DNA of 59,611 nt, filler included, from Sanchytrium tribonematis (GCA_018985235.1; 8 parts of 8 records of this genome joined end to end with filler, not necessarily neighbours in it), one strand, 5' to 3'; positions 1,245-59,255 are shown, counted from the first letter of the whole stretch. Numbers and translations are program-made. The notes: generated from the letters alone by a model not told the origin.

Positions 1245-2653
1245 TTATTCAGAGGAGGGTGTATTTAAAGCAATATTGTTGCCAGATTGCCTAAATGGTG
1301 TTGGAGTGGCCGGATCAACTCCAAAAGCTAGCTTTGTAGTAGATTTTGTAGGAGTGGCTTGCATCATGTTCATACCATTCACTTCTTTTAAAGCTTTCTG
1401 TCTTGCTTCTTCCGCTTTTTGTTTATCAATGTGGATCATCAAATTAATCGCTTTAGTTTTTTCTTCCTCATTGTAAATATGTTCTTTTGTAATCTTTTTT
1501 GAATTGGCAGTCAAATATTTGATCACATCAGATGCCGGAAATTCGGGAGGCACGCCATATTCCAATAAAATGTCATTAGCTATGTACAATTTAGAGACTT
1601 CATTTTTTGGACAGTTAATACGGATATACTCCCAAATCGATTGAAGGGCAATTTGTCTAGGTAAGTATAGATATTTTGTCATTGTTTTAACACAATCATT
1701 CCATTCCAGTAATTTTAAGGACTCAAATTTAATGACTTTCTTTCTCTTTTTATCTGGCTTGGTTTTCTTGTCAAGAAATGACGAGGAGCTTTTAACATGA
1801 CTCATATCTTGAATATCCATAACGAGTTTGATACTCTCTTGTACTGTCATATCTTCCACATTCATTTCTCTCAAGTTGTTTTTAATAACTGTTTTCAGTT
1901 CGGCAGTAGAAACTTGAGTCGATAAAAAAACACATAAATCTCCATTGGGAAAGATTTTGTCCTCATATTTGCATTGTTTCATTGTTGCATAGTCCATAGC
2001 CCGTTGATAAGCGATGTTTAAAGTGGTATATTTTGAACCAAGAAATTGCTCGAGAGCGGGACAAGTCCTCATTACAGCCTCCTCTCGAAACATAATTTTG
2101 GCATCTACTTCATAATCCTTAATTTTATCCAACATTTCAAGATATCGAAAAGTTTTTTGATATTCGGAATTCTGCACCTAAATTAAAAGGAAATTACTTC
2201 CCCGGGAGCAATCAATTTGCCTGGATAATTAAATTTTAAAGGATTGACACGCTCTACGTCTCCAAAAATAGGCTGTAATTCAGGTGTGACAACAATCATC
2301 AATGGTGACATCATTAGGCCTCTTTCTTTGCAATATTTCCAAATTAATTTTCCAATTAATGCATCTGGGAGATACTTTAAGCCAGTAATTCTTTCTATTG
2401 CGGAGTTACACTCGCGGAGAACATGGGTATCCCTTACCCATCTGAATTGCTTGCTCTCTTGAAATGCATATTCAGCGACTGTGATCATGAGGTTTACCCA
2501 ATCTTTTGAGTAGTCCAAAGATGCAGCAGCTTGAACCTCTTTCAAAATATGACCAAGTGGGTTGTTTGGATTTTTGACAAGTTCCTTTAGCTTATACTCT
2601 GCCTTCTTAGGAAGTTTTATAATTCCTTTGTATTTTTGGGTTGGTTTTAGCAT
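1245..2653 (-). CDS. Multi-SWIB-domain protein, 462 aa; join(2653..2198, 2177..1245)
   Basis: Removing a 20-nt GT-AG intron fuses two ORFs in frame (APGE|VQNSEY). Three SWIB-like segments: LIWKYCKERGL..LQPIFG, PALEQFLG..IFPNGDL and SIWEYIR. Confidence 0.65.
2178..2197 (-). other. 20-nt spliceosomal intron GTAATTTCCTTTTAATTTAG
   Basis: GT..AG ends, phase 0, restores the frame between ORFs 2183..2653 and 1245..2177. Confidence 0.75.
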
Positions 2654-2860
2654 TTTAAAATTTTTATATCACAAAGAAGTTTCACTTTCTAGTTGTGCTT
2701 GGCTCTTTAAATATCGCTAGTCACGTGCTCAAAATTAAAAATTTCAAAAACATCAATCCTTGATCACCTGTAAGCGCAAGTTGTGAACTACCGCTCCTAA
2801 ACTGAATGATGATTCCAAAATGGCCTAATTTAACTTTGAGAGATATAAATAATTTGAAAC

Positions 2861-4572
2861 ATGTTAACTCCTGTACTCATTTCAGTCGAGGTGAGAAATG
2901 CCTTTCAAGTATTGGAGAAGCTATCACAATTAAGGTCGTTCCACATAAAAGATCAAAACGACCCCAAATTTAACCAGCAGCTTAATAATAGTTTCTTGAT
3001 GCGACAAAAATTGCAAAAACTTGTTAAAAAGTCAAATGCATCAGAATATACTCCCATAAATATAGAAAATTTTAAATTATACAACAAGATTATGCCGGGT
3101 TTGGTGATGAATTTATTGTCTTAGTGCACTCCAAATCTAAAAAGATTGAAAAATTAGTAAAACTACTTGGCGCCAAAATTATACCCACAAAGGCTGTCAC
3201 CGAGTCAATACTTGAGCAGCAAATTTCAGAGATCGAGCAGTTAATCACAAATACCCAAGTCATGCTAAATAATGAAAAAGGATATCATGAGGTTTTGCTT
3301 CAAAAATGGTTGTTTAGCGTCAATGTTGACATAAATTATTTCAAGATATTGAACAAAGCGAGCCTCAAAGAGCAATTGGAGATCCATGGATTTTTAAAGT
3401 CTGGAGATTTAGAACAGGTAAAAGCGGTTTTAGACACTTTGCATAATGCAACAATGACCATGCTCTATGAAAATGAATATCCTACTATAATCAAGCACGA
3501 GTATTTTGGAATCAAATCCTACAATGAGGTAGACCCTTTTCAATTTATAATGATTGTTCCAATACTGTTTGGAATTTTAATAGGCGACATTGGGCATGGC
3601 CTGATATATCTGATTATCACATTGTTTCTATACACATCCATTGCAGATAAGATATTTTATCTGAAAGGAACTCTCAAATTTCTCACAGTGTTGATTTCAT
3701 TGTTTACTATTTACTCAGGTTTCATTTTCAACCAATTTTTTAGCGTCCCATTGGCAATTTTCAAAAGTCCTTTTGACGAGAACTCTGGCCCTTATTTATT
3801 TGGTCTTGATTATCATTTTTATGATTTTAACCGTTTCGACTTCCTTTTTCATTTTAAACTGAAACTGATTTATGTTTTGGTTTTTACCATGATTCTATTC
3901 GGACTGTGTGTCAAATTCATTAATATCTCGATGGAATTTAAACTCATGCGTCTCTTCAATGCTTTGCCACAATTTATTCTATTTTTTACTTGGTTTGGAT
4001 ACCCCATATTTTTAATGATCTTAGTATGGCTGAAATTTGATGTCAGCGTATACCACTCAATATTTAATATGATTCTAAAACCTTTGACTCCCTATGATAT
4101 GTACCCTCATCAATTTGTGGTTGAAAATTGCCTTAAATTAATTGCTTTGCTCTGTTTATTATGGTTGCTTCTTGTAAACCCAATTACGTTGTACTTTAAG
4201 CAAAGAATATACAACCAACAGGGATATATACCAATAAGTCACATACATTTGTCAACTTTTAGCTCAATTTTGCACAAAAATATGCTTGAAATTTCTGCAT
4301 TTGTGTTTAATATTTGGAGCGGAATGCAAAGTTTTCTTAGAATATTTGCATTTAGCATCGTTCATTGCGAGTTAAATACCCTGTTATGGATGCTGCATCG
4401 GCACTACTTGATATGGACATTTCTAACTCTTGTCTTGGCAATCGTGCATGGTTTGTTTGCTCTTGGGATTTCAGTTCAAGGATTTATTGTTTTTACAAAC
4501 CAATTTTACAAGGGAAATGGCACTAGATTCAGTCATATTGACTTGTACCGTAAATCCGAAGTACGCACGTGA
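2861..4572 (+). CDS. Divergent, shortened V-ATPase V0 subunit a (Vph1/Stv1-like), split into two frames near 3075-3124
   Basis: YNEVDP, LFGILIGDIGHG, YSGFIFNQFFS, GPYLFGLD, SFLRIFAFSIVH (cf. SYLRLWALSLAH) and FYKGNG. The short upstream ORF resembles the subunit-a N-terminus. Confidence 0.75.
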
Positions 4573-4684
4573 TTTACCAAGGCATACTTGAACCAATCAG
4601 ATTTGCATTCTTAAATTTGATTTGATATGAAAATTCCTTTGACATGCTACATCGCGATATTTATCAAATGAATGCCCTTTACTC

Positions 4685-7512: not shown

Positions 7513-8504
7513 CTTCGAGGGTGCTTTTTAAAAGGCTGTTTTCCTTTAAATGACTTTCCTTGATAATAAGGTTTTTGTTGAACGGAATCTTTGTTCTCGT
7601 AACTTTTGAATGCTTTCTTTTGAGGTTTAAAGAAGCTTTTGTCATTTGTAAACTTTCGCTTATTAGGAATGTTGGTCTTAAAAGAGTTTGTTGCTTCTGA
7701 CTCTAAGTTAATTGCCAACTCGTACGCATCGCGAAAGTTCTTGCATCGATCTTGTGAGTATTCGGCTTTTATCTGTCTCATAATTCTAGAGTCTTGTAGC
7801 GATGAACAAAACTTTCGAAAGAAAATTACACACTCATTTGGATCCTCTGTATCAAAATTGCATTTCTGGTGAAATTCTTTGAGCACTTTCACATACTGCT
7901 GAATTGATTGATTTTGTCTCTGAGACAAGCGAAAAAATTCATTGGTGAATTTTATATCATTGCTTGGCGGTTTCAATTCCAACAGTAAAGTGTCTTTCAA
8001 ACTTTTATAATTCTTTTCACAATTTTGAATTTGTTTGAACAGGGACGATGGCAGTCTTAATTTGACTTCTTTATATAGTCTGTCCTGATCCCATCCAAGT
8101 AGTTCCATATTGTCTTCCATTTTAGAAAGCCAATCTTCAATTTTATCTCTCTTTTCATCAAATCCGGGAATGTTGTATTTAAAGTCTTTAACAATATCGT
8201 TGACGCTGTTGGACTTTACCCAAGGAGGTGGTTGCATTTGACCAGGACTAGGATACTTAGTAATTTGTTCAATACTTTTCTTCATCTCTTTGAATTCTTT
8301 CATCATCGTTTCTAAATCTGTAGGATCTTCATCAATTGCCGTCACTGGTGTACTAGTGGGTTCATTGTCATTGGAAGTTTTTGGAATTCGAACTAAAGCT
8401 TCTCCATTTGAATTTGTTTCTAAATCTAATTGTTCTTCATAATTGTTAGTGGAAGTTCTTTGTTGTTCCTGTGGATCGGTTTCACGTAGATCACTCGCTG
8501 CCAT
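7513..8504 (-). mobile_element. LTR-retrotransposon Gag-like ORF (Ty3/Gypsy type), 3'-partial
   Basis: IPGFDEKRDKIEDWLSKME and RLSQRQNQSIQQYVKVLKEFHQKCNF resemble retrotransposon capsid motifs; a basic region follows. Confidence 0.7.
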
Positions 8505-9267
8505 GTAAAGGAGGAAAGGTATTTATTGGGGGGGAGATTACTTTATAACTGGAATGTAGAATGTTCTAGATGACATTCCTGTTACACACCACTTTCGTAT
8601 TCCACACTTTGGGCTGTTTCTTCAAACCATTTGGCCAATTTGATTGAAGGATCATTTTTGGCTTTCAAGCCTTTAAAGTATGGTAAAGCATTGAAAAATA
8701 ATTTAAATTTGGCTATTTTTTTTTAAAGTTGTTCAAAATTTATTAATAGAGTGGATTTCGCATCATCCATGAGAGAAAAATACCAAACGGTAATAAATCT
8801 CCGGGTTACGCCATTCAAGTACTGGTAAAAGCATTCCATATGGTTGCACACATTGGTTGAATTGAATAAATAAATTAATCACTTTCAGCAGGCCACCCTG
8901 CGTCATATTTTTCGGAATATAGGCTCCAAAAAAAGCGTCACCGCAGTTTATAGCTTCTGGGTTCTGATGCACAATTTGTTCCACTAAAAATGCTCTCAGT
9001 TATCGCATGGTAAAAGGGGAAAACAAATAAAAAAACCCTTTGCAATTTGTGAGTCGGCCGTTGATTCATCTTGACAAATAATACTTTAGTTGCTCTTTTT
9101 TAGGCAATTTGATTGATTTCTGTCTTTCTTTTCACTCTAGGAATCTTTTTTGCACTTTTGTCTTTGGTCATTGTTTGTCCGTTGCAAGGAGGGAAAACCG
9201 AATTCAAAATCAAAGACATTTAAGTCAGTATGACGAAATTTATTACTAATATGATGTCATTTTCGAA

Positions 9268-12521: not shown

Positions 12522-14171
12522 ATGAAACAACTGTACAGTTCCATCGCCATTCTCACAATATTTATTGCAATCAGCGAATATTACACTTATCAATCAGGTT
12601 TAGCGACCTCCGAATTAATTCCAGCTATCCTGAAATCAGATAAGGAATTATTTAATGCTCTAATTGTAAAATTTGTTTTTTTATTAGCTCTAAGTGCAAT
12701 TTTAAAATCGTTGACCTCTTTTTGTTCGAGCTACTTATCATTTGTAATTAGATTTGAAGTGCTAGAATCACTTAAACTTAAATTTAAATTGGTAGACATT
12801 GATTTCGATCAACGTTTGACGCAAGATTTAGAACTTATGTGTAATAAGCTATCAGAAATAGTGACCACGATGATTCCGGCTCCATTTATGGTGGTATTTT
12901 ATTGGTATAAGTCTGTGGAAGTTGCTGGTGACCTTTCACCTATAATAATTTTTGGATTTGTTATAGTTTCTTTTGTGGTTTCCTCAGTTATTGGTAAAAA
13001 AGTTCCCAGTCTGGTCTATTCAAAAGAAAAATCAGAAGGTAAATTAAGAATGCAATTTGTTAACTTGAAAGAAAGTGAAGAGTTGATAAAATTGTACAAT
13101 GGGATGAAAGTGGAGATGAATAATCTTCAAGAGTGTCTACAAATTTTAAAAAAAGTACAACTAAAAGTTATTTTGAATCTATTCGATGTTGATTTTTGGT
13201 CTCAACTTGTTGCTTACCTTGGCGGGATCTTGCCTTATTTTGTTCTTTCAATAGTAATTTTCAATTCAGCTTCTGATAAAATCAATACGTTATCAAGCGA
13301 AGATTTAGCTGGTGTAATTCAGATGGCAGTTTTTGTGCTCTTAATGTTAATGAACCGCTTTACAACAATCCTAGACAAATTCCCAATAATTTTTGAATTT
13401 ATTGGTTATTATAAAAGAGTATCTGAGACTCTTAAAATGATGGCTGAAGATGAAAAACCTGGTAATATGGAGACTAAATATCAATTTGGCACATTCGGGA
13501 TAGAAAATGCAAATGCAATTGCCAATGATGGATCTACGATTTTTGAAAAGCAAAGCATTGTTGCGCATCTGAACAACTCTTTATTTGTCACTGGTGAAAA
13601 TGGATGTGGTAAAACAACAATCACTCGTCTGATACGCAATTTATGGACTAATTCTACAGGAACGCGAGTTTTGCCGAGAGAAGCAAAATGGATGGTTATT
13701 CCTAGCAATCCCTATTTTGTTCAAGGTTCAATTATTCAAAATATTATTTATCCTTTATCTGACCAAGACAATATAAAACCTGAGGACGTATTACCATATT
13801 TAAAAATGATGGGTTTGGATTTCAACTCTAGGATTCACAGTTTAATGCTAAATTTTGATAAAAGTCCATTACAAGCTGTGTTGCCACTTGAGTTTTACAA
13901 ATCCCTCAGTATTGGTGAGCAGCAGAAGCTTTGTTTATGTAGAGCGTTGTTCTATAGACCCGAGTTTCTCATTATGGATGAATCTTTAAATAGCGTTGAC
14001 GAGGAATCGACTGCTGAATATTTTAGATTTTTAAAGCAACATAATTGTACTTTTATAACGATATCGCACAATCAACACCTTGAGCAATATCACGAAAGAT
14101 ATCTAGACTTGTCCCCAAATGACGGTGAAGAAAGCAGAAACACAAGAGCTCAGAGATTTGGACTTTTTTGA
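12522..14171 (+). CDS. ABCD-family half transporter (ABCD4/PXA-like)
   Basis: DQRLTQD, EGKLR (EAA-like), Walker A GENGCGKT, signature LSIGEQQKL, Walker B LIMDE and TISH. Confidence 0.88.
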   Translation: MKQLYSSIAILTIFIAISEYYTYQSGLATSELIPAILKSDKELFNALIVKFVFLLALSAILKSLTSFCSSYLSFVIRFEVLESLKLKFKLVDIDFDQRLTQDLELMCNKLSEIVTTMIPAPFMVVFYWYKSVEVAGDLSPIIIFGFVIVSFVVSSVIGKKVPSLVYSKEKSEGKLRMQFVNLKESEELIKLYNGMKVEMNNLQECLQILKKVQLKVILNLFDVDFWSQLVAYLGGILPYFVLSIVIFNSASDKINTLSSEDLAGVIQMAVFVLLMLMNRFTTILDKFPIIFEFIGYYKRVSETLKMMAEDEKPGNMETKYQFGTFGIENANAIANDGSTIFEKQSIVAHLNNSLFVTGENGCGKTTITRLIRNLWTNSTGTRVLPREAKWMVIPSNPYFVQGSIIQNIIYPLSDQDNIKPEDVLPYLKMMGLDFNSRIHSLMLNFDKSPLQAVLPLEFYKSLSIGEQQKLCLCRALFYRPEFLIMDESLNSVDEESTAEYFRFLKQHNCTFITISHNQHLEQYHERYLDLSPNDGEESRNTRAQRFGLF

Positions 14172-14193: not shown

Positions 14194-14910
14194 CTAGCTA
14201 TAAAAGTTTTGTCTTTTCAAGTCGTGGTGTAATAATACGCCATCGCCACTCACAACTTCAGTCTTTTGATATCGCTTTGCGCGATCACATAACAAATGAG
14301 CCTGTTTGACTACATTGGGGATAGAAGTAGGGGCGGCGCTTCTTTGGAAGAGATAGCAAAGGGTGAAAGTCAATTGTTGCAAATTGTTTGCTGTAACATT
14401 CATTTCGTTTTTCAATACAACATATCGAGTAGGAATCGCCGTACCTTGTAAACCATTGTGGCTTTGCATGAAAAACTCGAGATGTTTTCCAGTAATCTCG
14501 CTGTCAATTACAAGTCCATTCTTTAAGTTTCCGTTTTTGGATGTGATTTTTGGATCTTCAGAAAAGAAGCGAGTCTGATGGCGTTTAACGCAACAAATGA
14601 AAAGAAGCTTCGCGTCGAACTTCAATTTTGACATAGCTTGCTTCATTGCTAAAATTTCTTTTGCGCCATATGTGTCAAATTGGCCCTCTGACAAGCCATC
14701 TCGAAAAACAATCAAATTTTTTGGCATCATTTTTGTTTTTTCCTTAAAAAAAGCAAACAACTCCATAGTGGCCTTGCAAATGACCTCGGAAGTATCCTCA
14801 CCATCTACCTCGTAAAATACGCTACGCATCTCATAAAAACCAGAGTTGACAGTTCCCACAAAACTAGCAGTGCTCTTTTGTCCAGATCTAGAACTGATTT
14901 CATCCCCATG
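14194..14910 (-). CDS. Argonaute, C-terminal PIWI domain (5'-partial)
   Basis: FRDGLSEGQF, KRHQTRFF, QSHNGLQGTAIPTRY and AHLLCDRA; the frame stays open to the contig edge. Confidence 0.93.
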   Translation of the reverse strand, partial: HGDEISSRSGQKSTASFVGTVNSGFYEMRSVFYEVDGEDTSEVICKATMELFAFFKEKTKMMPKNLIVFRDGLSEGQFDTYGAKEILAMKQAMSKLKFDAKLLFICCVKRHQTRFFSEDPKITSKNGNLKNGLVIDSEITGKHLEFFMQSHNGLQGTAIPTRYVVLKNEMNVTANNLQQLTFTLCYLFQRSAAPTSIPNVVKQAHLLCDRAKRYQKTEVVSGDGVLLHHDLKRQNFYS

Positions 14911-14911
14911 A

Positions 14912-15013: not shown

Positions 15014-15442
15014 AATCATGCCAAAACCAGTGTCGAATTAACAGATGCCAAAGTCAAGACTGATGAAGCTTATGTTGCAAAGAATTGTGGATTTGAATTA
15101 CGATGTTCTGCAAATATTTCTAAATGTCCTGTGGGTGCAGATGGATGTGCTTATACGCCATTAATTGATCCAATATTGGGTATTTGCTATAAAGATTTAA
15201 CGAATTCATGCGAATATGCATTTGGTCATGGATGTTATATTCAAAAATTAAAATCACAAGATTCTGATGCGTGTGTTAAATTTCATGATACTGAATTGGT
15301 TCCATCTACAAAAGCACGACATCATGCAAAAAAGATTAAAAGTGATGCGCAATGGGCTATGGCAGGATTAGGACTGGCAGCTATTGCAGAAGGGATTGCC
15401 GCATATGGTATTTTGATTTATTTGAAAGGGATGAAGCAATAA
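15014..15442 (+). CDS. Cys-rich array member 1 (5'-partial), close paralogue of 17256..18158
   Basis: CGFELRC..GIC..C..GCYIQKLKSQDSDAC aligns with CAFEFRC..GIC..C..GCYIQPLKSKDSDAC; C-terminal hydrophobic helix. Confidence 0.75.
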   Translation, partial: NHAKTSVELTDAKVKTDEAYVAKNCGFELRCSANISKCPVGADGCAYTPLIDPILGICYKDLTNSCEYAFGHGCYIQKLKSQDSDACVKFHDTELVPSTKARHHAKKIKSDAQWAMAGLGLAAIAEGIAAYGILIYLKGMKQ

Positions 15443-15485
15443 ATACATGATTTGACAGTGTTTTGCACTAATAGGAGGTTAAACA

Positions 15486-15530
15486 ATCACGCCATGATAT
15501 CGTCATAATGGCGTGATAGTCACTATAAAT
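15486..15530 (+). promoter_or_regulatory. Putative promoter: 10-bp inverted repeat plus TATA-like element
   Basis: ATCACGCCAT (15486-95) and ATGGCGTGAT (15508-17), then TATAAAT (15524-30), 24 nt before the ATG. Confidence 0.4.
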
Positions 15531-15554
15531 AGAATCTCGTGTTGATGGCGCATC

Positions 15555-16337
15555 ATGTTGTTTATCAATGCGATATTTGCCAGAATTCATTTGCCACAAA
15601 TAGTGATTTCAACAAGCAATGATTTGTTAAATGCTGCTAGTCAATATGAATTAGAAGCACTAGAATGCTTTAAACAACTATTTAACAATGCACCATGTCA
15701 TGTACCCACTGAAATTCGTAGTGAAATGACTATGAAATGGAATGCATGGATTGATGCCATTCGAATGAATCCAGGATCAAAAAAAGTGATTTTTGAGTTA
15801 TTATTTGGTGTGAAGCAGTATCATGAGCCACAACTGTTGAAAAGGAACATTAAGAAATATGAGAATGCTTTGACGAGGATTTTATTGCCTCATTCATCTA
15901 AAATACACAAAAATGTGATGATGAAATTATTATATGCTGTAATTTTGGATTCGGGATTATTGGGGAATTCTGGGTACTTTTGCTTTCTTTGGAATAGAAG
16001 AGTACGGGATGAAAAGTTTATTATTCATGCAGATCAAGCTATTCAACAACTGATTCAAGATAATTGCTATTTTGCATTTCAATCAAATGATGGAGCATTG
16101 TGTTTTGATGACACGCAAGATATTTGTCAATCTGCACCACTGGGTGATTTAAAATTAAATCAATGTATAAATTATTATACAAATGAATACAGGAAAGCCA
16201 AAAAAGCGTATCAAGAGATAATTCATATTGAAGCATCATTGGTTCATCTTTCCATGATGGGATTTATACAAGTAATTGCATTTGTATTTGCATTAAGTGC
16301 ATTAAGAAATGCATTGGTGAATAATAAAGGACAATAA
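15555..16337 (+). CDS. Array member 2: signal peptide, LLKR site, hydrophobic helix, Cys loop, hydrophobic helix
   Basis: MLFINAIFA, LLKR, CYFAF..C..C..C and a C-terminal hydrophobic stretch. Confidence 0.7.
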   Translation: MLFINAIFARIHLPQIVISTSNDLLNAASQYELEALECFKQLFNNAPCHVPTEIRSEMTMKWNAWIDAIRMNPGSKKVIFELLFGVKQYHEPQLLKRNIKKYENALTRILLPHSSKIHKNVMMKLLYAVILDSGLLGNSGYFCFLWNRRVRDEKFIIHADQAIQQLIQDNCYFAFQSNDGALCFDDTQDICQSAPLGDLKLNQCINYYTNEYRKAKKAYQEIIHIEASLVHLSMMGFIQVIAFVFALSALRNALVNNKGQ

Positions 16338-16437
16338 ATCTATTTTTACAAAATTTTGCACTGCAAAATGAGGGGGATACATAATGATGTCATTTATGAT
16401 GTCATTTTAACTTCATTATGATGACATTTAAAACAAC

Positions 16438-17139
16438 ATGTTGATTTCTATTGCAATTGTATTTGCCAGACCTGTATTGCTATTACAGCCAGTACAAACA
16501 AATCCATTTGCACAATTATTCTTTAAATCCATGGGATTGTCAGATCATGTAGTGCAATCTGGTATTCAATTCTTGAAATTTGCAATGATTTGTGAACCAA
16601 TCTTTTTAAAATGTGATAATTTGAAAGATTGTTCATTACATGCAACAGATATGGAATATGGCACTAATTTGTGGAATCAATTGATTGATACAATGGATGA
16701 TGAGTCATTTAAACTCATGAGAGATCATTTGATAGCAAATTTAAAGTGGGGAACCCATGTAAAATTACGAAAAAGAACATTACAAGAAAATGATATTGAA
16801 AGTAATTTACCAGGAAATCGCAGAGTACCAACTGTTTCTAATTATCGAGCTATTCCAATTTCAATCTATTTGTTAAATTTGATGATTGTCACAATGATAT
16901 TTTTATTAATCAAAAATCATTCATTTTATTCAACAATCCATGCCACAACACCAATTTGTGATGTAAAAGCATCCAATTACAATGAGTGTCATAAATTAAT
17001 TGAAAATGTTGATCATCAGCCAATTGAAACATATATGCAAGATACGCCTGCAAATATTATCTGGAATCCATCAAATGAGGATGTTTTAGGATCATTTTTG
17101 TTACTTGTCAAACAACAAATGGATTTTTTTAATCAATAA
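16438..17139 (+). CDS. Array member 3
   Basis: MLISIAIVFAR, LFFKSMGL (shared with member 5), LRKR, a TM helix and CDVKASNYNEC; the second hydrophobic helix is weak. Confidence 0.7.
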   Translation: MLISIAIVFARPVLLLQPVQTNPFAQLFFKSMGLSDHVVQSGIQFLKFAMICEPIFLKCDNLKDCSLHATDMEYGTNLWNQLIDTMDDESFKLMRDHLIANLKWGTHVKLRKRTLQENDIESNLPGNRRVPTVSNYRAIPISIYLLNLMIVTMIFLLIKNHSFYSTIHATTPICDVKASNYNECHKLIENVDHQPIETYMQDTPANIIWNPSNEDVLGSFLLLVKQQMDFFNQ

Positions 17140-17255
17140 ATGGTATTGCACAACAAGGAGATGAATGACTGCCACATGATATTTTATTTCATCATTTATG
17201 GCATCATCATGGCATCATATTTATAATAAAAGTCATTTCATGTCTTTGATGCATC

Positions 17256-18158
17256 ATGTTGTTTATATTGTTGCTATTTGCCACCCAATTGCTTGAATTA
17301 TCACCAGCCACTCAAACATTTATTCAATTTGCCATTCAAATTGAAGCACAAGGAATAAACATACTTGAATGCTTAAAACAAGCATCAAATCCAAATGAAT
17401 GTGATGTAGATTCAGTATTAATCCAACAAGCATTTGATGAATCAAAACAATTTGCAAATTCATTAAATTTAGAGGCATTGGAACAAATCAGTCAATTTTT
17501 ACAAGGTCATGGTCCATCTCATTTGATTGTACTACCACAAACACGATTTAAAAGAGCATTGACTGAATTACCAATAACGCATCCCATTAATAATCGAATG
17601 ATTAAAATCACTTTTAAACGTGCCATTAAATTAATTGGAATTGTATTGGGTTTGGCGGCATTAAATGCAGCTTGGTATCCAATTGTACATACGTTGATTA
17701 AAAATCATCATAAAATACACCCATTAAACCACATTATCAATATTCAAACTGATCAAATTAACAAATTAGAAAATCAATTTAATTCTGATTGTGCATTTGA
17801 ATTTAGATGTAAAGGCCCTGATCCATCACAAGTAGATTGTCTTGTAGGAGATGATAAATGTGAAATACAGCCAATGATTGATACAAAATATGGTATTTGT
17901 TTACAAGAAGTGAAAGTTATTTGTGAAAATGCATTGAAACACGGATGTTATATTCAACCATTAAAATCAAAAGATTCAGATGCATGTATTGCGTATGATG
18001 TTACTAAAATCGAACCAATTAAAAGTGAAAGACACATTCAAAAAACAAGGAGATTTAATATTAGAGGAACATTGGTAGGATATTATTTTTTGGGAGCTTT
18101 GGATGCCATTGTGATTGCCTATTTACTACATAGTTTAAAAATTGAGTTTAAAAATTAA
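17256..18158 (+). CDS. Array member 4
   Basis: MLFILLLFA, RFKR, TM1, an 8-Cys loop and TM2. Confidence 0.72.
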   Translation: MLFILLLFATQLLELSPATQTFIQFAIQIEAQGINILECLKQASNPNECDVDSVLIQQAFDESKQFANSLNLEALEQISQFLQGHGPSHLIVLPQTRFKRALTELPITHPINNRMIKITFKRAIKLIGIVLGLAALNAAWYPIVHTLIKNHHKIHPLNHIINIQTDQINKLENQFNSDCAFEFRCKGPDPSQVDCLVGDDKCEIQPMIDTKYGICLQEVKVICENALKHGCYIQPLKSKDSDACIAYDVTKIEPIKSERHIQKTRRFNIRGTLVGYYFLGALDAIVIAYLLHSLKIEFKN

Positions 18159-18253
18159 ATTCAATAAATCACGGGTTTGACAATGTTTTGTATTTGGGGT
18201 AATTTCTGCCAATGATAGCAGAGTACAACGTCACCCGCTCATGAAAAAGAATC

Positions 18254-18991
18254 ATGTTATTGTCCATTTTCATTTCATTTGCAAGAGTATCCCATACAAC
18301 ATCAGAAACAGTCAGAATTGCAAATAATCCATTAAATAAACAGTCTGATGGAATGAATATGCAATTATTATTTGAATCCATGGGTCTACATCCTAATATA
18401 ATACAATCTGGTGCTCAATTCATGTCATTTGTCATATTACATAAAGCAGAATTAATGAAATGTGTTAGGCAATCAAATTGTCTATTAAAGAACACAAAGC
18501 AACATGGACGATTATTATGGATCCAATTTATGAATACAATGACTAATGAGTCATATCAAAAGATTAAAGACTATTTAATGAAATTGATTAAAGTGAAAAT
18601 GAATTCAAATCATCTTGTTGAAAGATCACCAGAGAAGACTGATGATGACGCAGATGTAATTGATTTGAATCAAGAAAATACATCCAAAATAGTAGCACTA
18701 TTCAAATTGATGGCTCTTTTAGTGCTATCTCTTGGATTGGGATATATTGGAATTTTATTACATAAATATGGAGATACTACTAAATTAATGGATGAAGTAT
18801 GCGGCATAGAATTAAGAGTAGCCAATTATAGAGAATGTCGCTATGATGTCCATATGGTCGGTGGAGACATTGAAAATCAAATTAATTCTGCTGAATTTTA
18901 TCAAATTGTGACACGCCTCATTTTTACGACGGATATTGTTTTTATTCCTATTTTATTGACTTTGATGTATGATGTTCATTTTAATCAGTAA
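18254..18991 (+). CDS. Array member 5
   Basis: MLLSIFISFAR, LLFESMGL, LVER, TM1, CGIELRVANYREC and TM2. Confidence 0.7.
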   Translation: MLLSIFISFARVSHTTSETVRIANNPLNKQSDGMNMQLLFESMGLHPNIIQSGAQFMSFVILHKAELMKCVRQSNCLLKNTKQHGRLLWIQFMNTMTNESYQKIKDYLMKLIKVKMNSNHLVERSPEKTDDDADVIDLNQENTSKIVALFKLMALLVLSLGLGYIGILLHKYGDTTKLMDEVCGIELRVANYRECRYDVHMVGGDIENQINSAEFYQIVTRLIFTTDIVFIPILLTLMYDVHFNQ

Positions 18992-19080
18992 ATGATGCAA
19001 ATATGATGCAATTTTGGAGTTAATCTGACAAATGACAGCACGGTATGGCGTCATTTGCAATTTAAAAATAGTCACCCATC

Positions 19081-20077
19081 ATGATGTGGTCCATTGTCTT
19101 CTTATTCCTATAAATTTAATGGCCATGTATGATGCTATTTGCCAATGAATTACGATTCTAAAATGTTTGGTATCCAGCCCCCTTGTGACAATGTTGCTTC
19201 CTGCTATGACAGTTCCACGATTGAATGGATTCAGTGGAGATACTGTTGTGGCAGCAAATCAGTTATCCCATTAAGTAATGAAGTATCGGGTAGCTGCAGA
19301 ATATTGCGTGCAACATGTCTGGAAGAAATGCAACGTACCATATCGAGTAAAACAGGGTGCTTTGCGTACATGGTATGCATTTACAGATACTGTTGATCGT
19401 AAACAATTTCCATTAATTGCTAAATATCTAGCAGGTGGTCAATGGAACAAGGTAAAGGAGCATTTAAATGTCATTTTGGCACGTGGCTCTCTTTATAAAA
19501 GAGTATTACGAAATGAGGTAATGGAAGCACAAACCGGTGAGCAAATAGGGAATTCTAATGAGAACAAAGCTAAAAAGAGACGAAATCGTATTTATAATCG
19601 ATTTTAGCTATTTTAGCACTAAGTGGCTTATTGTATGCTGCTGTATGGGGTTATATTCAAAATGAGCATGGTTTAGAACATATGAGTGAAATAAGCAACT
19701 TGGCAAATAAGGGTGAAGAAGACATTTTACAAAAAATTATAAACAATTGTGAGTTCAAAAACGTTGGACCAGGCTGTGATGTTCTAGATATTAATCCGTA
19801 TTATTGGACATGTTTGCCAGCCAAAATGGAAGCGTGTCAAACATCCATTAAAGATGGAACATGCCATGTGGAACAAAAAGGAGAATTTGATCAAGAAAAA
19901 TGCAACAAGTTGAGCAATAATTTATCAACAGCATTAGACGATGTGGACGATGCAAAAACACGAGTGAATGAATTGAGTCAAAGAAAAGTTTGGATTCTTA
20001 TAGCTACTTGTACTGATACAGCAGCGTTGCTTGCTGCGGTATATTCACTTTACAAGGCTGTCTTTAAGATCAAATAA
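19081..20077 (+). pseudogene. Array member 6, disrupted; paralogue of 20097..21050
   Basis: MMWSIVFLFL* signal fragment, several in-frame stops and a frameshift near 19605. VAAEYC..RVKQGALRTWYAFTDT is nearly identical to member 7; LYKR site. Confidence 0.65.
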
Positions 20078-20096
20078 ATCTAAAATTACAATTATC

Positions 20097-21050
20097 ATGC
20101 TGTTTAGCAAGGAAAAGTGCAATTTTAACCCCTTTCTGACAATGTTGCTTCCTTCTATGACATATTTTCTACGATGGAATGGAATCAGTACAAATACTAT
20201 AAAAGCAGCAAATCGATTATCCAAATATGTAATGGAGCATCAGGTAGCTGCAGAATACTGCTTTCATCAACTACCAAAGAGATGCATTGTGCCAAATCGA
20301 GTAAAAAAGGGTGCTTTGCGTACATGGTATACATTTACAGATACCATTCATGAACGAGAATATAATGTCATTGCCAAGCTTCTAGCAGGCCAACAATGGG
20401 ATCAAATCCCAAAAGATTTGAGATATTTAAATGAGCATTCTCTTTTAAAAAGAGGTTTAACCACTGATGGAACTCATGAATTTGCTAGTGGAGATGTAGA
20501 ATTAGCCATTCAACTCCCACAACAGTCTGCTGATACCAATGACAAGAAATCCATTGATGAATTTCGAAAATCTATTTTTCTAAAATTAGTTACAATTTTA
20601 TTACTTGCAGGTTCAATGTTTGCAACTGGTTGGGGTATGAAGTCTTATTATCACAAAACTGGGTTGGGTGAAGCTAGAATTACATTTGCAGATGAGACAT
20701 TAGCAACCGTGTCTAATACAATCAGAAATCATTGCGGATTTAAATTTGTAGAACCAAAATGCGACTATTTGATCAGTGATTATGGTGATTGTGTGATAGA
20801 TGATGGATGTCAAAGTGCAATTAACAATGGAGTGTGTCATGTGGTGCCTACAAAAGATTATAATTATACGGATTGCCAGAACTTGATCCCTCAACTGCAA
20901 GCAGCCACAAGAGACCTTGAAGATGCTAATTCAGAATGTTCGCTGTTATATTTTACAGATGCTTTAATCGTTGTAGCGGGATTATTTCAAATTTGTTGGT
21001 TTGTTTGGGTACTTTCAGAATTGCGCAGCGAGGTGCGAAAACATAAATAA
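20097..21050 (+). CDS. Array member 7 (signal peptide apparently missing)
   Basis: LLKR, TM1, CGFKF..C..C..C..C..C and TM2; starts 19 nt after the member 6 stop. Confidence 0.65.
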   Translation: MLFSKEKCNFNPFLTMLLPSMTYFLRWNGISTNTIKAANRLSKYVMEHQVAAEYCFHQLPKRCIVPNRVKKGALRTWYTFTDTIHEREYNVIAKLLAGQQWDQIPKDLRYLNEHSLLKRGLTTDGTHEFASGDVELAIQLPQQSADTNDKKSIDEFRKSIFLKLVTILLLAGSMFATGWGMKSYYHKTGLGEARITFADETLATVSNTIRNHCGFKFVEPKCDYLISDYGDCVIDDGCQSAINNGVCHVVPTKDYNYTDCQNLIPQLQAATRDLEDANSECSLLYFTDALIVVAGLFQICWFVWVLSELRSEVRKHK

Positions 21051-21467: not shown

Positions 21468-21540
21468 TGGAGAATCAGGGCTTCGATCCCTGTACCTTTC
21501 GCATGCAAAGCGAACGCTCTACCAATTGAGCTAATTCCCC
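21468..21540 (-). tRNA. tRNA-Ala(TGC)
   Basis: 73-nt cloverleaf GGGGAATTAGCTCAATTGGTAGAGCG..TTTGCAT..GGGATCGAAGCCC..TTCTCCA with a G3:U70 pair, followed by TTTT. Confidence 0.95.
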
Positions 21541-22501: not shown

Positions 22502-22545
22502 TGAAACAATCTGAAGAAGTCCTCATTTGAAATCGATGCCTTTGT

Positions 22546-35113: not shown

Positions 35114-36467
35114 ATGTTCAACACTGTTAGAAGTAAAGTTTCCAAGAAAAAGAAAAGGTATGTGGACGAAAAGGAAGGATTTGACTTGGATTTGTCGTAT
35201 ATTACGGATTATATAATAGCTATGGGGTACCCAAGTCCTTCAGATTCGATAGAAGGGTTATATAGAAATCCAATGAGTGAAGTTTATCGATTTTTAGAAA
35301 CCAAGCACAAAGATCATTACAAAGTATACAATTTATGCTCAGAAAGACATTATGACCCAGCAAAATTTAATGGTAGAGTTTGTCGATATCCTTTTGATGA
35401 CCACAATGCACCTCCTTTAGAAATGATTAAATTCTTTTGCGAAGACGTTGGTCAATTTTTAAAAAAAGACAAGAAAAACATTGCAATTGTGCACTGCAAG
35501 GCTGGTAAGGGGCGTACAGGAACTATGATTGCATCTTATTTGATGCACTGCGGACTCAAGAAATCTGCGAAAGATGCCTTGCTTTACTACGCCAAAGCAC
35601 GAACATATAATGGTGAAGGAGTTACAATTCCAAGTCAGATCAGATATGTTTATTATTATGAGAAACTGATCCAATTGAATTTTAATTATATACCAAAGAA
35701 GATTTATTTTTCGAGATTGATTTTACATAATGTGCCACATTCCATGGTAAATAATCCAGGTATATTTTATTAATTAAGCTTTGTCTCTCAGTATTGTGTC
35801 TAAAAATATGAAAATTTACGAGTCCAAAGAAAATGAGGACTGTCGAATTATAATAGACAAAGGGAAGGATGCCATGTTGGTTTTAAACGAGCCTTTGGTT
35901 TTAGCAGGCGATGTGAAATTCGAACTGACTGCTAAGGCTATTAAAAAAGGAAAATTTGCTACATTTTGGCTAAATACTACATTTATACCCGAGGATGGAA
36001 TCCTGGGATTAACAAAGGGAGAAATAGACAAGCTTTGTAAGGATAGCTCACATAAGGAAGTTCCTGACAAGTTTTGGATCGAGGTACGTTACCACTCTCA
36101 TGTGGAGAAAAATGCCCTGCCTATTGTTAATACATCAGCGGTGCTGAGGCAACAAATAAGGCCAATTTCTGTTCTTGGACTAGGGTCTCCATTGTCATCC
36201 AACGAAGACGTAGTTTCTCAAAAATCAATTAATGTCAGAAGGTCTAGCGCTAGTGATGTTCAGGTTGCAAATATCAGGACAAATCTTGAAAAGGAATTAT
36301 CTAGATCAAAGACATCAGTGCATGTTTCCAATTCTAAAATTTTAGAAGAAACGGAAGAATCAATACGGCGTTCCGGAAGCTTACCTGACATACGGAAAAG
36401 CTCCACAGTAGGCGACAATCATGAAGACGATGATGAAGAAACAGACGAAGAAACAGATGACGAATAA
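35114..36467 (+). CDS. PTEN: PTEN lipid phosphatase; join(35114..35759, 35779..36467)
   Basis: VSKKKKRY..FDLDLSYIT, HCKAGKGRTG and GVTIPSQIRYV; the C2 domain (FWLNTTFI) lies in exon 2. Confidence 0.93.
35760..35778 (+). other. 19-nt intron GTATATTTTATTAATTAAG
   Basis: Removal gives CCA G|CT TTG, joining the phosphatase and C2 regions in frame. Confidence 0.85.
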
Positions 36468-36484
36468 AATGTTCTTTATTTTAA

Positions 36485-37304
36485 TCACGATGTATCCATA
36501 GCATCTAAATTTTCGATATGTTCCTCAATTTCCAAATTTTCCTCCGTAGTTTTCAACACTTCTACATTAACTTGAAATACTTGTGATAGGTGTAGACATA
36601 GTATAATTTCCAAAAACTTTTGGTTTGGGATTTGGTTGTTCATAATTTCTCAAATATTCAGTTTTTTCTTTAGTTATAACACAAACATCAATATTTGAAC
36701 CTGAACCTAAATCGTTAAACACACCAGCTGCAATTGCATTTCTAACCAATTTTATAGCGTCTTCTTTTTCGAGATTTGGTTTAAATTGTGACTCAAACAC
36801 AGACATTGCCGCTAATGAGCCAGATCCCATTGTGACATACGGCAGGGTATCTGTTGAACCATGAGGATAAACTGTATATAAATGTGGTCCAGTAACATCG
36901 AATCCACCGACAACTAATGCAGCTCCAACATGACCTTGATATTTGAACAAATACTGTTTAAGAATGGTAAGCACAGTGTTTACGCGAGGATGGGAGCCAG
37001 TTTCCAAGCTGTGCAATTCTAACTGATATCTTGCCATATTAGTGGTATAGTCAGTGTCAGCAGCAGTCCCGGCTCCACAGCAGTATATATTTGGTGCAAT
37101 ATAATGTATTTTGGTACAGTTTTTGTCAGCTACAACTTGTCCAGCTGTTGCCCTAGTATCAGCACCTAATACAACACCGTCTTTATAAACAATTCCAACA
37201 ATCGTTGTACCTGTTTTCGTAGTCTTGGCTTTGAAGTTCTTAGTTTTGTCTCCAGTCAAATGTTCATTTCTAGCAGATAATGAAAAATCAAATCCTGTGG
37301 TCAT
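36485..37304 (-). CDS. PUP1: 20S proteasome beta-2 subunit; join(37304..36581, 36561..36485)
   Basis: [21 protein letters not shown] and DLGSGSNID; the spliced C-terminus ends ..AMDTS*, like PSMB7 orthologues. Confidence 0.93.
36562..36580 (-). other. 19-nt intron GTATTTCAAGTTAATGTAG
   Basis: Removal restores the tail [27 protein letters not shown]. Confidence 0.85.
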
Positions 37305-38071: not shown

Positions 38072-38767
38072 TTACTTGGAACGATCAGTGTCAACGGACT
38101 GAGTTGTGTTTTTGACTTGTTCATTCTGATTCAACACCTTGGATTTCAAATGGTCAGAAACTTTATTCTGTTGAGTGCTATTTTTCACCGCGTTGTTTTC
38201 AAATTTAAGTTTGGAGCCGACATTAATTTGTTGGGCGCTATTCTTGACTTGATCCTTTTCTGAAATCACATTGGGATTATCTACAATAAAAGGTACTTGT
38301 TCCGTTCTATTTGCGCATTCAATACCATGGAAATCACAAGTAATAATAAAATCAATTTTACAATTCCCCTTCATTTCTTTGGTGATTGTGACATTTCTAG
38401 TTGCTTTCCAATTGATATAACCATATCTCAATTTAAAATAGTATCCAAATAATTGCTTAACGGGTGTTTCTGGGACGACACATTTTCTGTATTTGACATC
38501 AGGGCATTCAATCCAAAATGAGGCCTCTCCATGGTCATAAAATCGTACTTCTCTAGCAATTAATTCTATTTTAAGTGTCTCATTTACTTTATAAGTGGGA
38601 TTGGCGTATTGATTTGGGGATAAAAAGTTGAATTGTCTTCCATAATTCGTAGTGAAAAACAGAGTCCATATTCCAAATGGGTAACTAAATAGAATCATGT
38701 ACAATGTATTATATCCCGGAATAAATGAATAGAATCCCTGTACCGTGAGAATAGTCAACAGAAGCAT
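38072..38767 (-). CDS. Hypothetical secreted or membrane protein with short C-terminal repeats
   Basis: Hydrophobic N-terminus MLLLTILTVQG, several Cys, and VKNSAQQ/VKNSTQQ/VKNTTQS repeats. Confidence 0.55.
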   Translation of the reverse strand: MLLLTILTVQGFYSFIPGYNTLYMILFSYPFGIWTLFFTTNYGRQFNFLSPNQYANPTYKVNETLKIELIAREVRFYDHGEASFWIECPDVKYRKCVVPETPVKQLFGYYFKLRYGYINWKATRNVTITKEMKGNCKIDFIITCDFHGIECANRTEQVPFIVDNPNVISEKDQVKNSAQQINVGSKLKFENNAVKNSTQQNKVSDHLKSKVLNQNEQVKNTTQSVDTDRSK

Positions 38768-40096: not shown

Positions 40097-41134
40097 ATGC
40101 TCTTTGGCCTGTTGATCTATGGGATAGTCAATATTATAGTAGCCGGAGTAGGTCTATTTTCAATGGTTCCTCTATTAGAAAGACAAATATTTAGTATTTT
40201 AAACAATCCCAAAGAAATTGGTCAAGATTTAAAAGAAATTCCATTTGATAAGATATTAAAATTATTAAATAAGCTAGGTGGCAGTATAGAAGCAGCTAAA
40301 ATTCACTGGGGATTCTATAAAAGGGCTACGGAAGCTTCATTAGCAGTTACACCTGTGCACGAAGAAATATTTCTAAAATTGTCAAAATATGGATATTTTA
40401 TTAATTTGATACATAGTCCTTTATTAAACCATATTCATAGCAAATATAAGATCAAATCAATTCATCCAGACATATTCCCAGTTAATATTGCTAAAATTGC
40501 ATTTGTTTTAGATGATCCAGATAAATTTGAACATTTGCAATTCGAGTCATTGGAGCCAAATGAGAAACCAGCAGATGTGGCACGCTTTTACACAATGGTA
40601 TTAAGTACACCATATGCATACGCTTATGAGTTATTGCGGCATTCCATATTGACAATTGATAATTTGCCACTTTTAGAATTGCAAATTCTATATTACATGA
40701 TTTACAATCCCCATCAATCTAGAGATATGCTGAAGGATATCATAATTCAGTATAAAATACTATATAGTACTCAAATCTCTATATTCTCTGATTATAAGCC
40801 ATTTGTCATATTTTTTGACATGAACAAGTTAACCAGCTTCAAACAGGTTAAAAATGAGCAATCGTTTCATTCATTTGCGTATAATCAACTATTGAATGGA
40901 TATGGAAATGAATATTTGCAATTATTTGATGTGTTTTATGCAGATCAAACTCAAAATTGTGAAAGAATCATTTCAATTAGACACCAAATAGACCAATATA
41001 GGCTCACTCTCACTGCCACGTATGAAAATTTACAAGCCATTCGTAGAGAATACGAAACAGAATCGACTGATTTTCATTGCAAATCACAAATCGCATTTTT
41101 GTTTCAACGAGCAGAACATTTAGAAGAAGAATAG
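40097..41134 (+). CDS. Hypothetical protein with N-terminal hydrophobic segment
   Basis: 345-aa ORF; no recognisable domain. Confidence 0.55.
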   Translation: MLFGLLIYGIVNIIVAGVGLFSMVPLLERQIFSILNNPKEIGQDLKEIPFDKILKLLNKLGGSIEAAKIHWGFYKRATEASLAVTPVHEEIFLKLSKYGYFINLIHSPLLNHIHSKYKIKSIHPDIFPVNIAKIAFVLDDPDKFEHLQFESLEPNEKPADVARFYTMVLSTPYAYAYELLRHSILTIDNLPLLELQILYYMIYNPHQSRDMLKDIIIQYKILYSTQISIFSDYKPFVIFFDMNKLTSFKQVKNEQSFHSFAYNQLLNGYGNEYLQLFDVFYADQTQNCERIISIRHQIDQYRLTLTATYENLQAIRREYETESTDFHCKSQIAFLFQRAEHLEEE

Positions 41135-46740: not shown

Positions 46741-47941
46741 TTAGCCTTTCACAACACCAAGTTTATCAATAGCACGAGTTCCATATTCTGCCCAATCTTC
46801 TTTGGTGATCCAAAAGTGAGGTTTATCTTTCATGATATCAGCCAACACACTTCCACCCAACCACACCATATGTTTTCTTCTAGGTGGATCTTCCACCTTT
46901 ATTTTAAATTTCTTCAGTCTGGACAAGTCACCATTGGCAATTTTCTGCAAATATAATTGCTTTACTTCTCTTTCTAATCGACTTGGCAATCCTGGATACC
47001 TAAATAAATTAAAAATACATAGTAGAACCACCACTTAAAACAATGTGCTTGTACAATTCACTCCGAATATCCATATCTGCAGTTTGAATGGTATTAAACA
47101 AAAGCTCTGCAACTCCTGCACTTTCTACATCGACTAAATGAGGTTGAAATAAGACCTCTGGTGCCTCAAATCTTTCACTTCCAACTTTAATCGTTCTTCC
47201 ATCTGGTAAAACATATTTTTCAACGCAATAAGTAGTTTCTTGGGCCAACTTCATTTCTTGTGGAATATCATATGCAACGTAGCACAATTCTTCTTTGATT
47301 TCTCTAACAGTCTCAAAATCAGCGCTTTTATTAAAAGCGTATCCTCTTTGAAGAAGTAATTTGATAAGGTATTTTGTGACATCTCGACCAGCAATATCTA
47401 ATCTTCTTGTCAAATGATTAAGCGAATATCCATCATAAACTGGTACAATGTGTGTGACACCGTCACCAGCATCTACCACAACACCAGTTAATAATCCTTG
47501 GGCATATAGAGTTAAAACAGCCTGAATAGCAATGTAACAACCACTAAATTGATATTGCTCCATCATTGTTTCAACCATTCTTTCTCGGTTCTTTTTTGGA
47601 TTGAGAGGAGGCTCTGTCAACATCGTATAAGTTTCCTTTGGGTTGCATTTTAATTTTTCAAAAGTGTAATTCCAAACGAAGTGCATATCGTCCCAGTTAC
47701 GTACTTGTCCATTTTCCATAGGATAGTTCATTTGCAATAATTGTGTGAATGGTGTACATTCGTCACCGACCATGATATCTTTTACGGTTTTGCCAGTTTT
47801 CTCTTGAATGGCTTTTAGATCCGTCTGACTAGTCAAAATAGGTCTACCAACAACTGATGGAAAAATTGATGTTGGGAAATTACTACCTGCCCATCCCGCC
47901 TTAACAAATCCAGATCCATTATCAATAACGATGGGTTTCAT
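46741..47941 (-). CDS. ARP2: Actin-related protein 2; join(47941..47019, 46999..46741)
   Basis: [33 protein letters not shown], spliced [15 protein letters not shown] and [10 protein letters not shown]. Confidence 0.96.
47000..47018 (-). other. 19-nt intron GTATTTTTAATTTATTTAG
   Basis: Removal gives ACT AT|G TAT CCA GGA, the highly conserved GGSTMYPG motif. Confidence 0.92.
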
Positions 47942-56757: not shown

Positions 56758-56815
56758 CAATAAATGTTTCAAAAATGATGGCAAAATCCTATCTATTTTT
56801 ATTTATTAAAAAATA

Positions 56816-59255
56816 TTAAATATCCATCACAATGAATATGTTCAAAGTTTTGTCCTCTCTCTTTTCAGAGTATTGAAGGGAAGTCAGCACATCATTATCA
56901 TTAAGAATAAACACAGTTGAGCGATCTTCATCCTTGTAGTACTTCACTTTAAATCTTGCGGCGGCTTTAATTTTCGTTTGTATCCTGCTATAAAATTCAG
57001 CATACGTTAGTGATTTTTCTGTTATCATAAAAGCATAATGGTCATTTTGCACATGAATCTTAACTTTAATGGGTTGTAATGGTGTTTTGACTTGTTCCCG
57101 ACCAAGTGATGTTGATTCCACGGTTCCTGATCGAATTCTAAATTTATCGGATGGCGGCAAAGGTGCCTTTCGAGGAGAATTGTAAGTTGAACCTTCATCA
57201 ACTGCAGACGAGTTTGGTCTTTTAGGAGATTGTGCCGCGACTGATTTTGGTCGATCGGAACCCAACGGCTGAACAACATCATCAAGCTTAATTTGTGGTG
57301 GGGGACTTGGTCTTGGAGGTGCCTTTCCAATATTAGGTTTTTTTTCTTCCTTGGACAAACCTTCGTTTGAAAAAATGTGAGGGTAATCATATGGCGGCGG
57401 CGGTTTATATGAGGGTATTGGCGAGGGCATTTGTGCTGCATATGATAAAGAAGATCGTCTGCGTCCAAGAGTAGAATCCATGGACCTAGCTTGTTCGTAC
57501 TCAGCTTTATCCTCGGTATTATCAAAAAAAGATTTTGCATTAGGTGGGTTTTCACGCAACTCGACCTCTGGTGGAGGTGGACGTGGTGGTCTTGTCTTAT
57601 TTGGAGAAAATTCTTCATCGTCGTTGTCAAATTTTAATTGTAATTTGTTGGGAGCAATGCTTTGCTTCTTTTTCTTCCGATCCTTTAATTTTTCCAAGTA
57701 CCTTTCTAAAGTAGTTTGCCAAAGCTTGAGCTGTTCCTCGTTCCTACACTTCAAAGTGAAAGACTCCATTTCCTGACTTCTCCAAAAAACTTTCAACATA
57801 AATTCATCTAAATTAATAGCAGATACCTTTTGTAGTGCAATTGACCACGCCACTCACATTCCCAATCCATATTCTACCTTTGATTTGAAAAAATGTTTTG
57901 ACATTGCCCGACTTTTGTTTGAATGGTCGTAAAATTGATGTGCTCTGATTTTCTTTGCAGCATAAAATTATTCTTTCGAACAAATATACCAGTAGTTCTC
58001 TTTCTGTGTCGTTTACTAGCATCAAAAATTTGTCATGTAGCAAAAGGTCGCCAAATGATGACGGGTCATGCCCCTTCCATTCATCAACCCTCTTTTCCAA
58101 ATCTTCTTTAATTGCCAAATTTTCCTGCTTTCTTCTAACCTCGTTCACTCTGTCCGCAGCCTTTTTGACGCTTTTTAATCCAAGCTGCAATTCCTTATGT
58201 AAAGGGGCTTCTGCGTCTAGTTTAGAATGCTTAATTATCTCGTTGATTAATAATGGATATTTGCAAATTCTTTGTATAGGTTTTATAAGGTAAGAGGGAA
58301 GTTCATACGTACATTCCATTAAGTGATTTGCTTGAGACAAAGCAGGTGCCTCTGACTCTGTTAATTCTATTGCTTTGTTATAATTTTTACAAAAGTTGTC
58401 ATAAACTGAGAAAGCTGTTTCTGTTTGAACAAACAAAGCCCCAATTCGCATTCGCATATCCATTTCACTTGACTCGTCCATTAAAATTTCTGTGCAAATA
58501 GAGAAGCGCCTTTGAAAATCAACTAGTGCAGGTAAGTTGGCAAACAATACTTCAACTATTTCGGAGCTCAAAACCTTAAAATTCACAACATAAATTTGAT
58601 AATCAAGTAGTTTTTCAAGATCCTTGACATACTTCTTTTCTGTTTGAACCATTTCTGAAAAATTCTTACTCAGAACTCCATCAATTGCTATTCCACTTTT
58701 AGCACTGACACTTGATCGAAAATCTATTCTATCGTCATCGATGATCTGCTTTTCTACTAATATAAAGATAATTTTTTCTAAAGAATATAAAACTTTGGTA
58801 AACCCAGCAATGTCGTCATGATATAATTCACTAATTGTAAATAATTCAGAGTCAGCCCACCGTAAATTAGTCTTACAGGATACAATACAATGGTAGACCT
58901 GAGCTTTACATTGATTTAAATTCTGAGACTGCATGGCTGCTTCCCAGTTTTTAATTTCAATTAATTTATCTTTTGGTAAAATAAAATTCAAAAGTAAACA
59001 GAGAGGATCACCGGATCGTGTCAAGGTCCACAGAATTGATATTGGATCAGGTTTTCCTGTAATTAAATGTATGGGAGTCGCACAAACAAATAGAGTACCC
59101 AATTGCTCTACTGGACAAGCAACTGAAAAAGGAATGGATGCTGGACGTCTACTTAATTTTGAATCTATATAAGATATGAAATATTGAAATTTTGGAATCT
59201 GGTTTAATTGCTTTACGATCCTGCGCGATCTTTCGTAAAGACTGTCCAATTTCAT
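56816..59255 (-). CDS. CDC24: Cdc24/Scd1 Rho-GEF (CH-DH-PH-PB1); join(59255..57827, 57807..56816)
   Basis: SLYERS..L, CH region, DH (TEKKYVKDLE..LIKPIQRICKYPLL), PH (YLFERIILCCKE) and PB1 (IKVK..KVKYYKDED). Confidence 0.9.
57808..57826 (-). other. 19-nt intron GTATCTGCTATTAATTTAG
   Basis: Removal gives AAA G|AT GAA TTT ATG TTG AAA GTT TTT TGG, completing the PH domain. Confidence 0.87.

Follow-up and report, generated by a model that had tools for sequence, protein, structure and literature searches.

Probable spliceosomal introns of 19–20 nucleotides in conserved genes of the sanchytrid fungus Sanchytrium tribonematis

Introns of 15–16 nt are described for heterotrich ciliates in the accessible parts of the literature (PMC10245619; for Stentor coeruleus, PMC9505925). 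The original prediction for the DNA analyzed here cited these and the introns of chlorarachniophyte nucleomorphs as the known tiny-intron cases, but left out the mikrocytids (16–17 nt) and the myxobolids (median 22 nt). For fungi, the shortest intron length found in the accessible literature is 22 nt, and the 19–20 nt segments described here lie below it; the accessible part of PMC8476143, on fungal introns, contains none as short as these. The sister group of the sanchytrid lineage has ordinary intron-rich genes, e.g. Blastocladiella emersonii with 19,375 introns in 10,031 genes (PMC9730499).

The window, i.e. the whole stretch of DNA that was analyzed (59,611 nt with filler), consists of eight contig pieces of S. 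tribonematis, each 7.3–7.4 kb long, with N spacers between them. The GC content is 34–35% in seven of the eight pieces and 47% in the retrotransposon piece at positions 22502–29869, which encodes the reverse transcriptase, RNase H and integrase of an LTR retrotransposon. A separate gag open reading frame is found at positions 7513–8522 and a Piwi-domain gene at positions 14194–14911.

Five GT..AG segments, located on pieces 1, 5, 5, 7 and 8, are very probably U2-type spliceosomal introns of the sanchytrid, and would be ancestral introns that have shrunk to 19–21 bases. The coordinates, strands, lengths (20, 19, 19, 19 and 19 nt) and GT..AG ends given in the original prediction are all exact. 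The candidate introns and their host genes are as follows.

2178–2197, minus strand: SWIB-like candidate intron, 20 nt, phase 0, GT..AG, A at position −6
35760–35778, plus strand: PTEN candidate intron, 19 nt, phase 1, codon aligned with human Asn212
36562–36580, minus strand: proteasome beta-2 candidate intron, 19 nt, phase 1
47000–47018, minus strand: Arp2 candidate intron, 19 nt, phase 2
57808–57826, minus strand: Cdc24 candidate intron, inside the PH domain, 19 nt, phase 1
1245–2653, minus strand: SWIB-like host gene, 462 aa with the intron removed, 156 aa unspliced
35114–36467, plus strand: PTEN host gene, 444 aa with the intron removed, 219 aa unspliced
36485–37304, minus strand: proteasome beta-2 host gene, 266 aa with the intron removed, 245 aa unspliced
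46741–47941, minus strand: Arp2 host gene, 393 aa with the intron removed, 310 aa unspliced
56816–59255, minus strand: Cdc24 host gene, 806 aa with the intron removed, 480 aa unspliced

The donor GT and the acceptor AG are present in all five segments, as are a GTA start and an A at position −6, which is the sequence signal for a branch point. The segments are 74–89% AT, and their right-justified 3′ consensus is TTWAT-N-WAG. With the segments removed, the SWIB-like gene, PTEN, proteasome beta-2, Arp2 and Cdc24 each have a complete frame, of 462, 444, 266, 393 and 806 aa in that order; the protein repair that had been predicted was obtained. The Pfam PH_10 match of Cdc24 is divided between both exons. 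The predicted fusion of two SWIB-like open reading frames also agrees with three homologs (22–29% identity), which cross the intron site as a single open reading frame without a break. The PTEN and proteasome beta-2 genes lie tail to tail, 17 bases apart (positions 36467–36485), and share a contig in Amoeboradix gromovi too.

The sample is five introns in approximately 44 open reading frames and 59 kb, i.e. about one intron per nine open reading frames in the window; with a sample of this size, longer introns may exist elsewhere in the genome. The introns are located at 0.33–0.90 of the coding length in the five host genes and display no 5′ bias (n = 5), a result on which the greater difficulty of detecting short first exons bears. 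A 5′ intron bias is usual in intron-poor genomes. Introns of 18 or 21 nt that are in frame and have no stop codon are invisible unless homologs exist. Two 18-nt in-frame GTA..TAG sequences with an A at −6, at positions 38685–38702 (minus strand) and 40750–40767 (plus strand), are found in unannotated open reading frames and are possible hidden introns.

All frame-restoring deletions of 1–90 nt near the break were scored against full-length homologs in four genes (the first 40 homologs per set, three for SWIB). Among the GT/GC–AG deletions, the proposed intron comes first in each of the four genes, i.e. Arp2, Cdc24, beta-2 and SWIB. When all frame-restoring deletions are ranked, the Arp2 intron is joint first among 1689, the SWIB intron is at rank 7 of 1169, the Cdc24 intron at rank 13 of 1949 and the beta-2 intron at rank 16 of 2135. 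The deletions that slightly outscore the intron in the last three genes are non-GT-AG and mostly of equal length, shifted by a few bases; the top-scoring non-GT-AG deletion is 28 nt in beta-2 and 26 nt in SWIB. Use of a more distant acceptor at these sites (22, 26 or 37 nt) scores below the proposed introns. For PTEN, a PDB alignment was used instead of deletion scoring, and each exon by itself matches human PTEN. Chance was assessed with 100,000 simulated insertions per composition into the coding DNA of the window. A random 19 or 20-nt insertion is repaired by a same-length GT–AG deletion within 6 nt in 2.1–3.5% of trials, and in 0.3–0.4% if GTA and an A at −6 are required, a motif that was itself derived from these five introns.

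The original prediction stated that no longer intron is needed, and this holds in the window; however, two more frame breaks fit no consensus intron. One is in a divergent V-ATPase subunit a-like gene at positions 2876–4572 (plus strand), where the break near 3075–3100 has no consensus-intron repair and the gene is either a pseudogene or the product of an assembly error. A candidate of 26 nt at positions 3099–3124 (plus strand) would delete residues aligned to yeast subunit a and was rejected. The other is in a tandem run of about eight open reading frames without a Pfam match, several of which are mutually related, at positions 15014–21050 (plus strand). The copy at 19.1–20.1 kb has an in-frame stop at position 19272 and a frameshift near 19597. 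Here a 20-nt candidate at positions 19588–19607 (plus strand) has no A at −6, its removal costs 7–8 residues that the intact paralog has, and the gene has an in-frame stop. Also rejected were a 21-nt candidate at positions 12841–12861 (plus strand), where the ABCD4 alignment is gapless, and five other 18–21-nt consensus matches, which connect no open reading frames.

The nearest named proteins are those of A. gromovi, with identities of 94% for Arp2, 87% for beta-2 and 73% for Cdc24, and with PTEN in the same 90% cluster. The best matches outside the sanchytrid clade do not exceed 72% for Arp2 and 75% for beta-2. The closest named relative by protein identity is thus a sanchytrid (Sanchytriomycota). 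Sanchytrids are parasites of algae. Several further ENA/NCBI records are as close as A. gromovi; a search of JGI with Arp2 found no relative. The database entries of the relatives are predictions of open reading frames only, in which an intron appears as a premature end or as an insert. Such a break or in-frame insert is present at the four conserved-gene sites in 13 of the 13 closest relative records that reach them. The three close relatives at the Arp2 site all stop at the same codon, the four PTEN relatives of the same 90% cluster all break at the site and the four close beta-2 relatives all stop at intron base 12. At the Cdc24 site, record P0123 stops and P0179 has seven additional residues in frame. 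The more divergent Cdc24 paralogs P0124, P0127 and P0128 (47–59%) are unbroken there, which, like the three uninterrupted SWIB homologs, counts against the intron reading. P0125 and P0126 terminate sooner, at a second site that is intronless in the window sequence. P0371, the SWIB-like homolog of A. gromovi, has an early end with a G-x-x-x-stop tail as in the phase-1 read-throughs, and possibly represents a further tiny intron.

The GT..AG lengths compatible with each of 15 read-through peptides were enumerated, i.e. from the peptides and not from the DNA of the relatives. Seven of the 15 give lengths, which are 19, 19, 19, 19, 20, 21 and 21 nt and represent all three frame classes. Four of these peptides continue past the intron and into the exon that follows, namely P0126 (19 nt, score 86 versus 23 for the runner-up), P0179 (21 nt, 167 versus 13), P0365 (19 nt) and P0363 (19 nt, with 13 nt also feasible). 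The lengths for P0002 (19 nt), P0123 (20 nt) and P0125 (21 nt) hold if the TAG acceptor supplies the stop codon. For A. gromovi, introns of 19 nt are predicted in Arp2 and at the second Cdc24 site. Five peptides stop at intron base 12, like three of the window introns, and no length is derivable from them; the remaining three are uninformative. The −6 base is forced to A in five of five determined cases and is free in two. Thus the five window lengths and the seven inferred from peptides, 12 of 12, are within 19–21 nt, and at a single Cdc24 site three organisms have 19, 20 and 21 nt.

That the segments are assembly or amplification artefacts, or lie in dead gene copies, with GT–AG ends by coincidence, is extremely improbable. 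The assembly is fragmentary, and two of its frame breaks, in the V-ATPase a-like gene and the paralog at 19.1–20.1 kb, are real and have no intron, which speaks for such an origin. However, the same codons are broken in three to four clearly different sequences per conserved gene (two for Cdc24) and the inserted letters differ, chance repair is only 2–3.5% per site, and no full-length sanchytrid-level Arp2 or beta-2 is present among the 120 best matches for each. It is also very hard to credit that the segments are retained in the mRNA, with frameshifting, read-through or ribosome hopping, or with the truncated proteins as the real products. Unspliced beta-2 does lose merely its tail (245 of 266 aa), which would fit such retention, but unspliced Arp2 lacks 83 residues and unspliced PTEN lacks the C2 domain. 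Recoding assigns no role to the GT–AG ends, the branch-like A or the ancestral intron positions, and 19, 20 and 21 nt at the one Cdc24 site would require three distinct recoding events. Neither an artefact nor a pseudogene nor recoding readily accounts for this length series in three organisms.

A third alternative accepts true introns and regards them as the short end of a wider range of lengths, removed by an unmodified fungal spliceosome. It is unlikely, although the sample is small (five in the window, seven inferred), detection by open reading frame read-through is biased to short introns, and most core splicing factors are present. Against it are the restriction of all 12 lengths to 19–21 nt and the finding that no break in the window needed a longer GT–AG candidate. 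This alternative is compatible with the interpretation of the five segments as shrunken spliceosomal introns and differs from it solely on the genome-wide claim.

The PTEN intron is in phase 1 of the codon that matches human Asn212, seven residues past the end of the alignment, if no indel is present there. Human PTEN intron 6 is at c.634/c.635, in Asn212 (PMC5599331, accessible part). A scan for the intron-site pattern at the Arp2 codon gave eight JGI loci, none of them sanchytrid, of which six are intronless and two have long introns. The latter, L004 and L007, are distant, intron-rich eukaryotic contigs whose GT–AG introns at this very Arp2 base are 345 and 386 nt long. The long intron at L007:1-700 is full of TTTAGGG-like repeats, along with duplicates of the end of the exon. 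Since the PTEN and Arp2 positions are common to human intron 6 and to L004/L007, at least these two of the five are likely to be old introns that have shrunk and not new insertions.

The following model is proposed for these introns. U1 and U6 would recognise GTA, and U2 would pair weakly with the TTWAT stretch, from which the A at −6 would branch. The lariat loop would have 14–16 bases and the five-base tail would be constant, the 3′ AG being chosen because it lies at a fixed short distance from the branch A. Only the part upstream of the branch would vary in length. With so short a tail, Slu7 and Prp18 would be unnecessary, and both may be lost; this is the least certain step. The fixed five-base tail fits the 19-, 20- and 21-nt cases; P0125, given its assumed acceptor, does not agree with a branch held at base 14 as counted from the 5′ end. 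The original prediction, that gene finders overlook ultra-short spliceosomal introns here, is the best reading, to which the comparative evidence adds much, but the fixed length that it proposed applies to the five-base tail and not to the total length, which is 19–21 nt in the clade. Slu7 is unnecessary when the distance from branch to 3′ site is ≤9 nt (PMC10158995), and in yeast Slu7 and Prp18 are dispensable at 7 nt (PMC5340917), according to the accessible parts of both papers.

The A. gromovi eggNOG sheet (3,755 rows; PMC8371127, supplement file 4) lists Prp8, Brr2, SF3B1 and both U2AF subunits, and SF1/BBP, U1-70K, Prp22, Cwc25 and Isy1 are also present. Only about half of the proteome is annotated in it, and BUSCO completeness is 92%. 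SLU7, PRP18 and what we take to be their KEGG/KOG identifiers have no match in its 3,755 rows; with the proteome half annotated and at this completeness, their absence from the annotation is a lead only. The A. gromovi SF1/BBP consists of two adjoining open reading frames on one contig (rows 1135–1136), as an unrecognised intron would cause. In the window Rfam gives no snRNA, its sole match being a tRNA gene at positions 21468–21540 (minus strand). Of the inventory proposed with the original prediction (U2AF, SF1, SF3b and snRNAs), the proteins are thus annotated in A. gromovi and the snRNAs are not in the window. The suggestion of a modified spliceosome fits the unannotated Slu7 and Prp18, but U1-70K, U2AF, SF1/BBP, SF3B1, Prp8 and Brr2 are annotated. 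It is conceivable, though somewhat doubtful, that sanchytrids have genome-wide the shortest fungal introns (19–21 nt) together with a spliceosome converged on that of Stentor, i.e. with a five-base tail, with Slu7 and Prp18 lost and with U1, U2AF and SF1 kept.

In the sanchytrid genome paper (PMC8371127, accessible text), open reading frames were called by TransDecoder on genomic contigs with no intron model, and the word intron occurs only within a reference title, as it does in the accessible text of PMC10459994. That gene finders would miss such introns agrees with the records of the relatives, whose predicted proteins are broken at the same codons. If the segments are spliced, introns of 19–20 bases would account for truncated proteins in public sanchytrid lists, and in the proteomes behind phylogenomic and gene-loss claims the products of intron-bearing genes would be truncated or split. 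Among the literature matches listed, which do not extend to subscription papers, none reports spliceosomal introns in sanchytrids. Other lineages are known to have tiny introns, and the sanchytrid is apparently an independent and unreported fungal case. If true, near-minimal introns originated independently within the Fungi, under the 22-nt microsporidian minimum that was found. The 19–21-nt series at one orthologous site would show that the part 5′ of the branch is variable and the five-base tail is not, and would be a handle on how small a spliced intron can be and on the natural dispensability of Slu7 and Prp18.

Comparison with known systems, as described in the accessible parts of the papers cited, shows that S. 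coeruleus (PMC9505925) shares the GTA start, AT-richness, a branch A six bases before the end and a five-base tail; it too yielded no Slu7 or Prp18. The sanchytrid differs in its 19–21 nt, in a loop of 14–16 versus 10–11 bases, in being a fungus with few introns per gene and in that splicing here is predicted. Chlorarachniophyte nucleomorph introns are similar in length (18–21 nt) and GT–AG ends, but they have no discernible branch A, number about three per gene and belong to a relic endosymbiont nucleus (PMC6009652), whereas the sanchytrid has a clear TTWAT at a fixed place and about one intron per nine open reading frames, in the main nucleus. The mikrocytids are also parasites with a narrow class of few introns (16–17 nt) of conserved sequence; however, they are rhizarians with shorter introns and a spliceosome down to 17–19 proteins (PMC10245619), and A. 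gromovi, unlike these, retains U1-70K, U2AF and SF1.

The microsporidian Encephalitozoon cuniculi is a fungal relative with very short GT–AG introns and a branch motif, but these are 22–76 nt long, number a few dozen per genome and belong to a separate lineage (PMC3629993, PMC6349667). The short introns of E. cuniculi are spliced <20% on average (PMC6349667), and by this analogy splicing may be inefficient and retention possibly high in the sanchytrid as well. The myxobolids and dicyemids, with median lengths of 22–27 nt (22 in myxobolids), are parasitic opisthokonts in which the donor is cut to GTa and ancestral positions are retained (PMC13644364). Their branch-like A shifts away from the AG as the intron lengthens (PMC13644364), whereas in the sanchytrid introns of 19–21 nt the A stays at −6.
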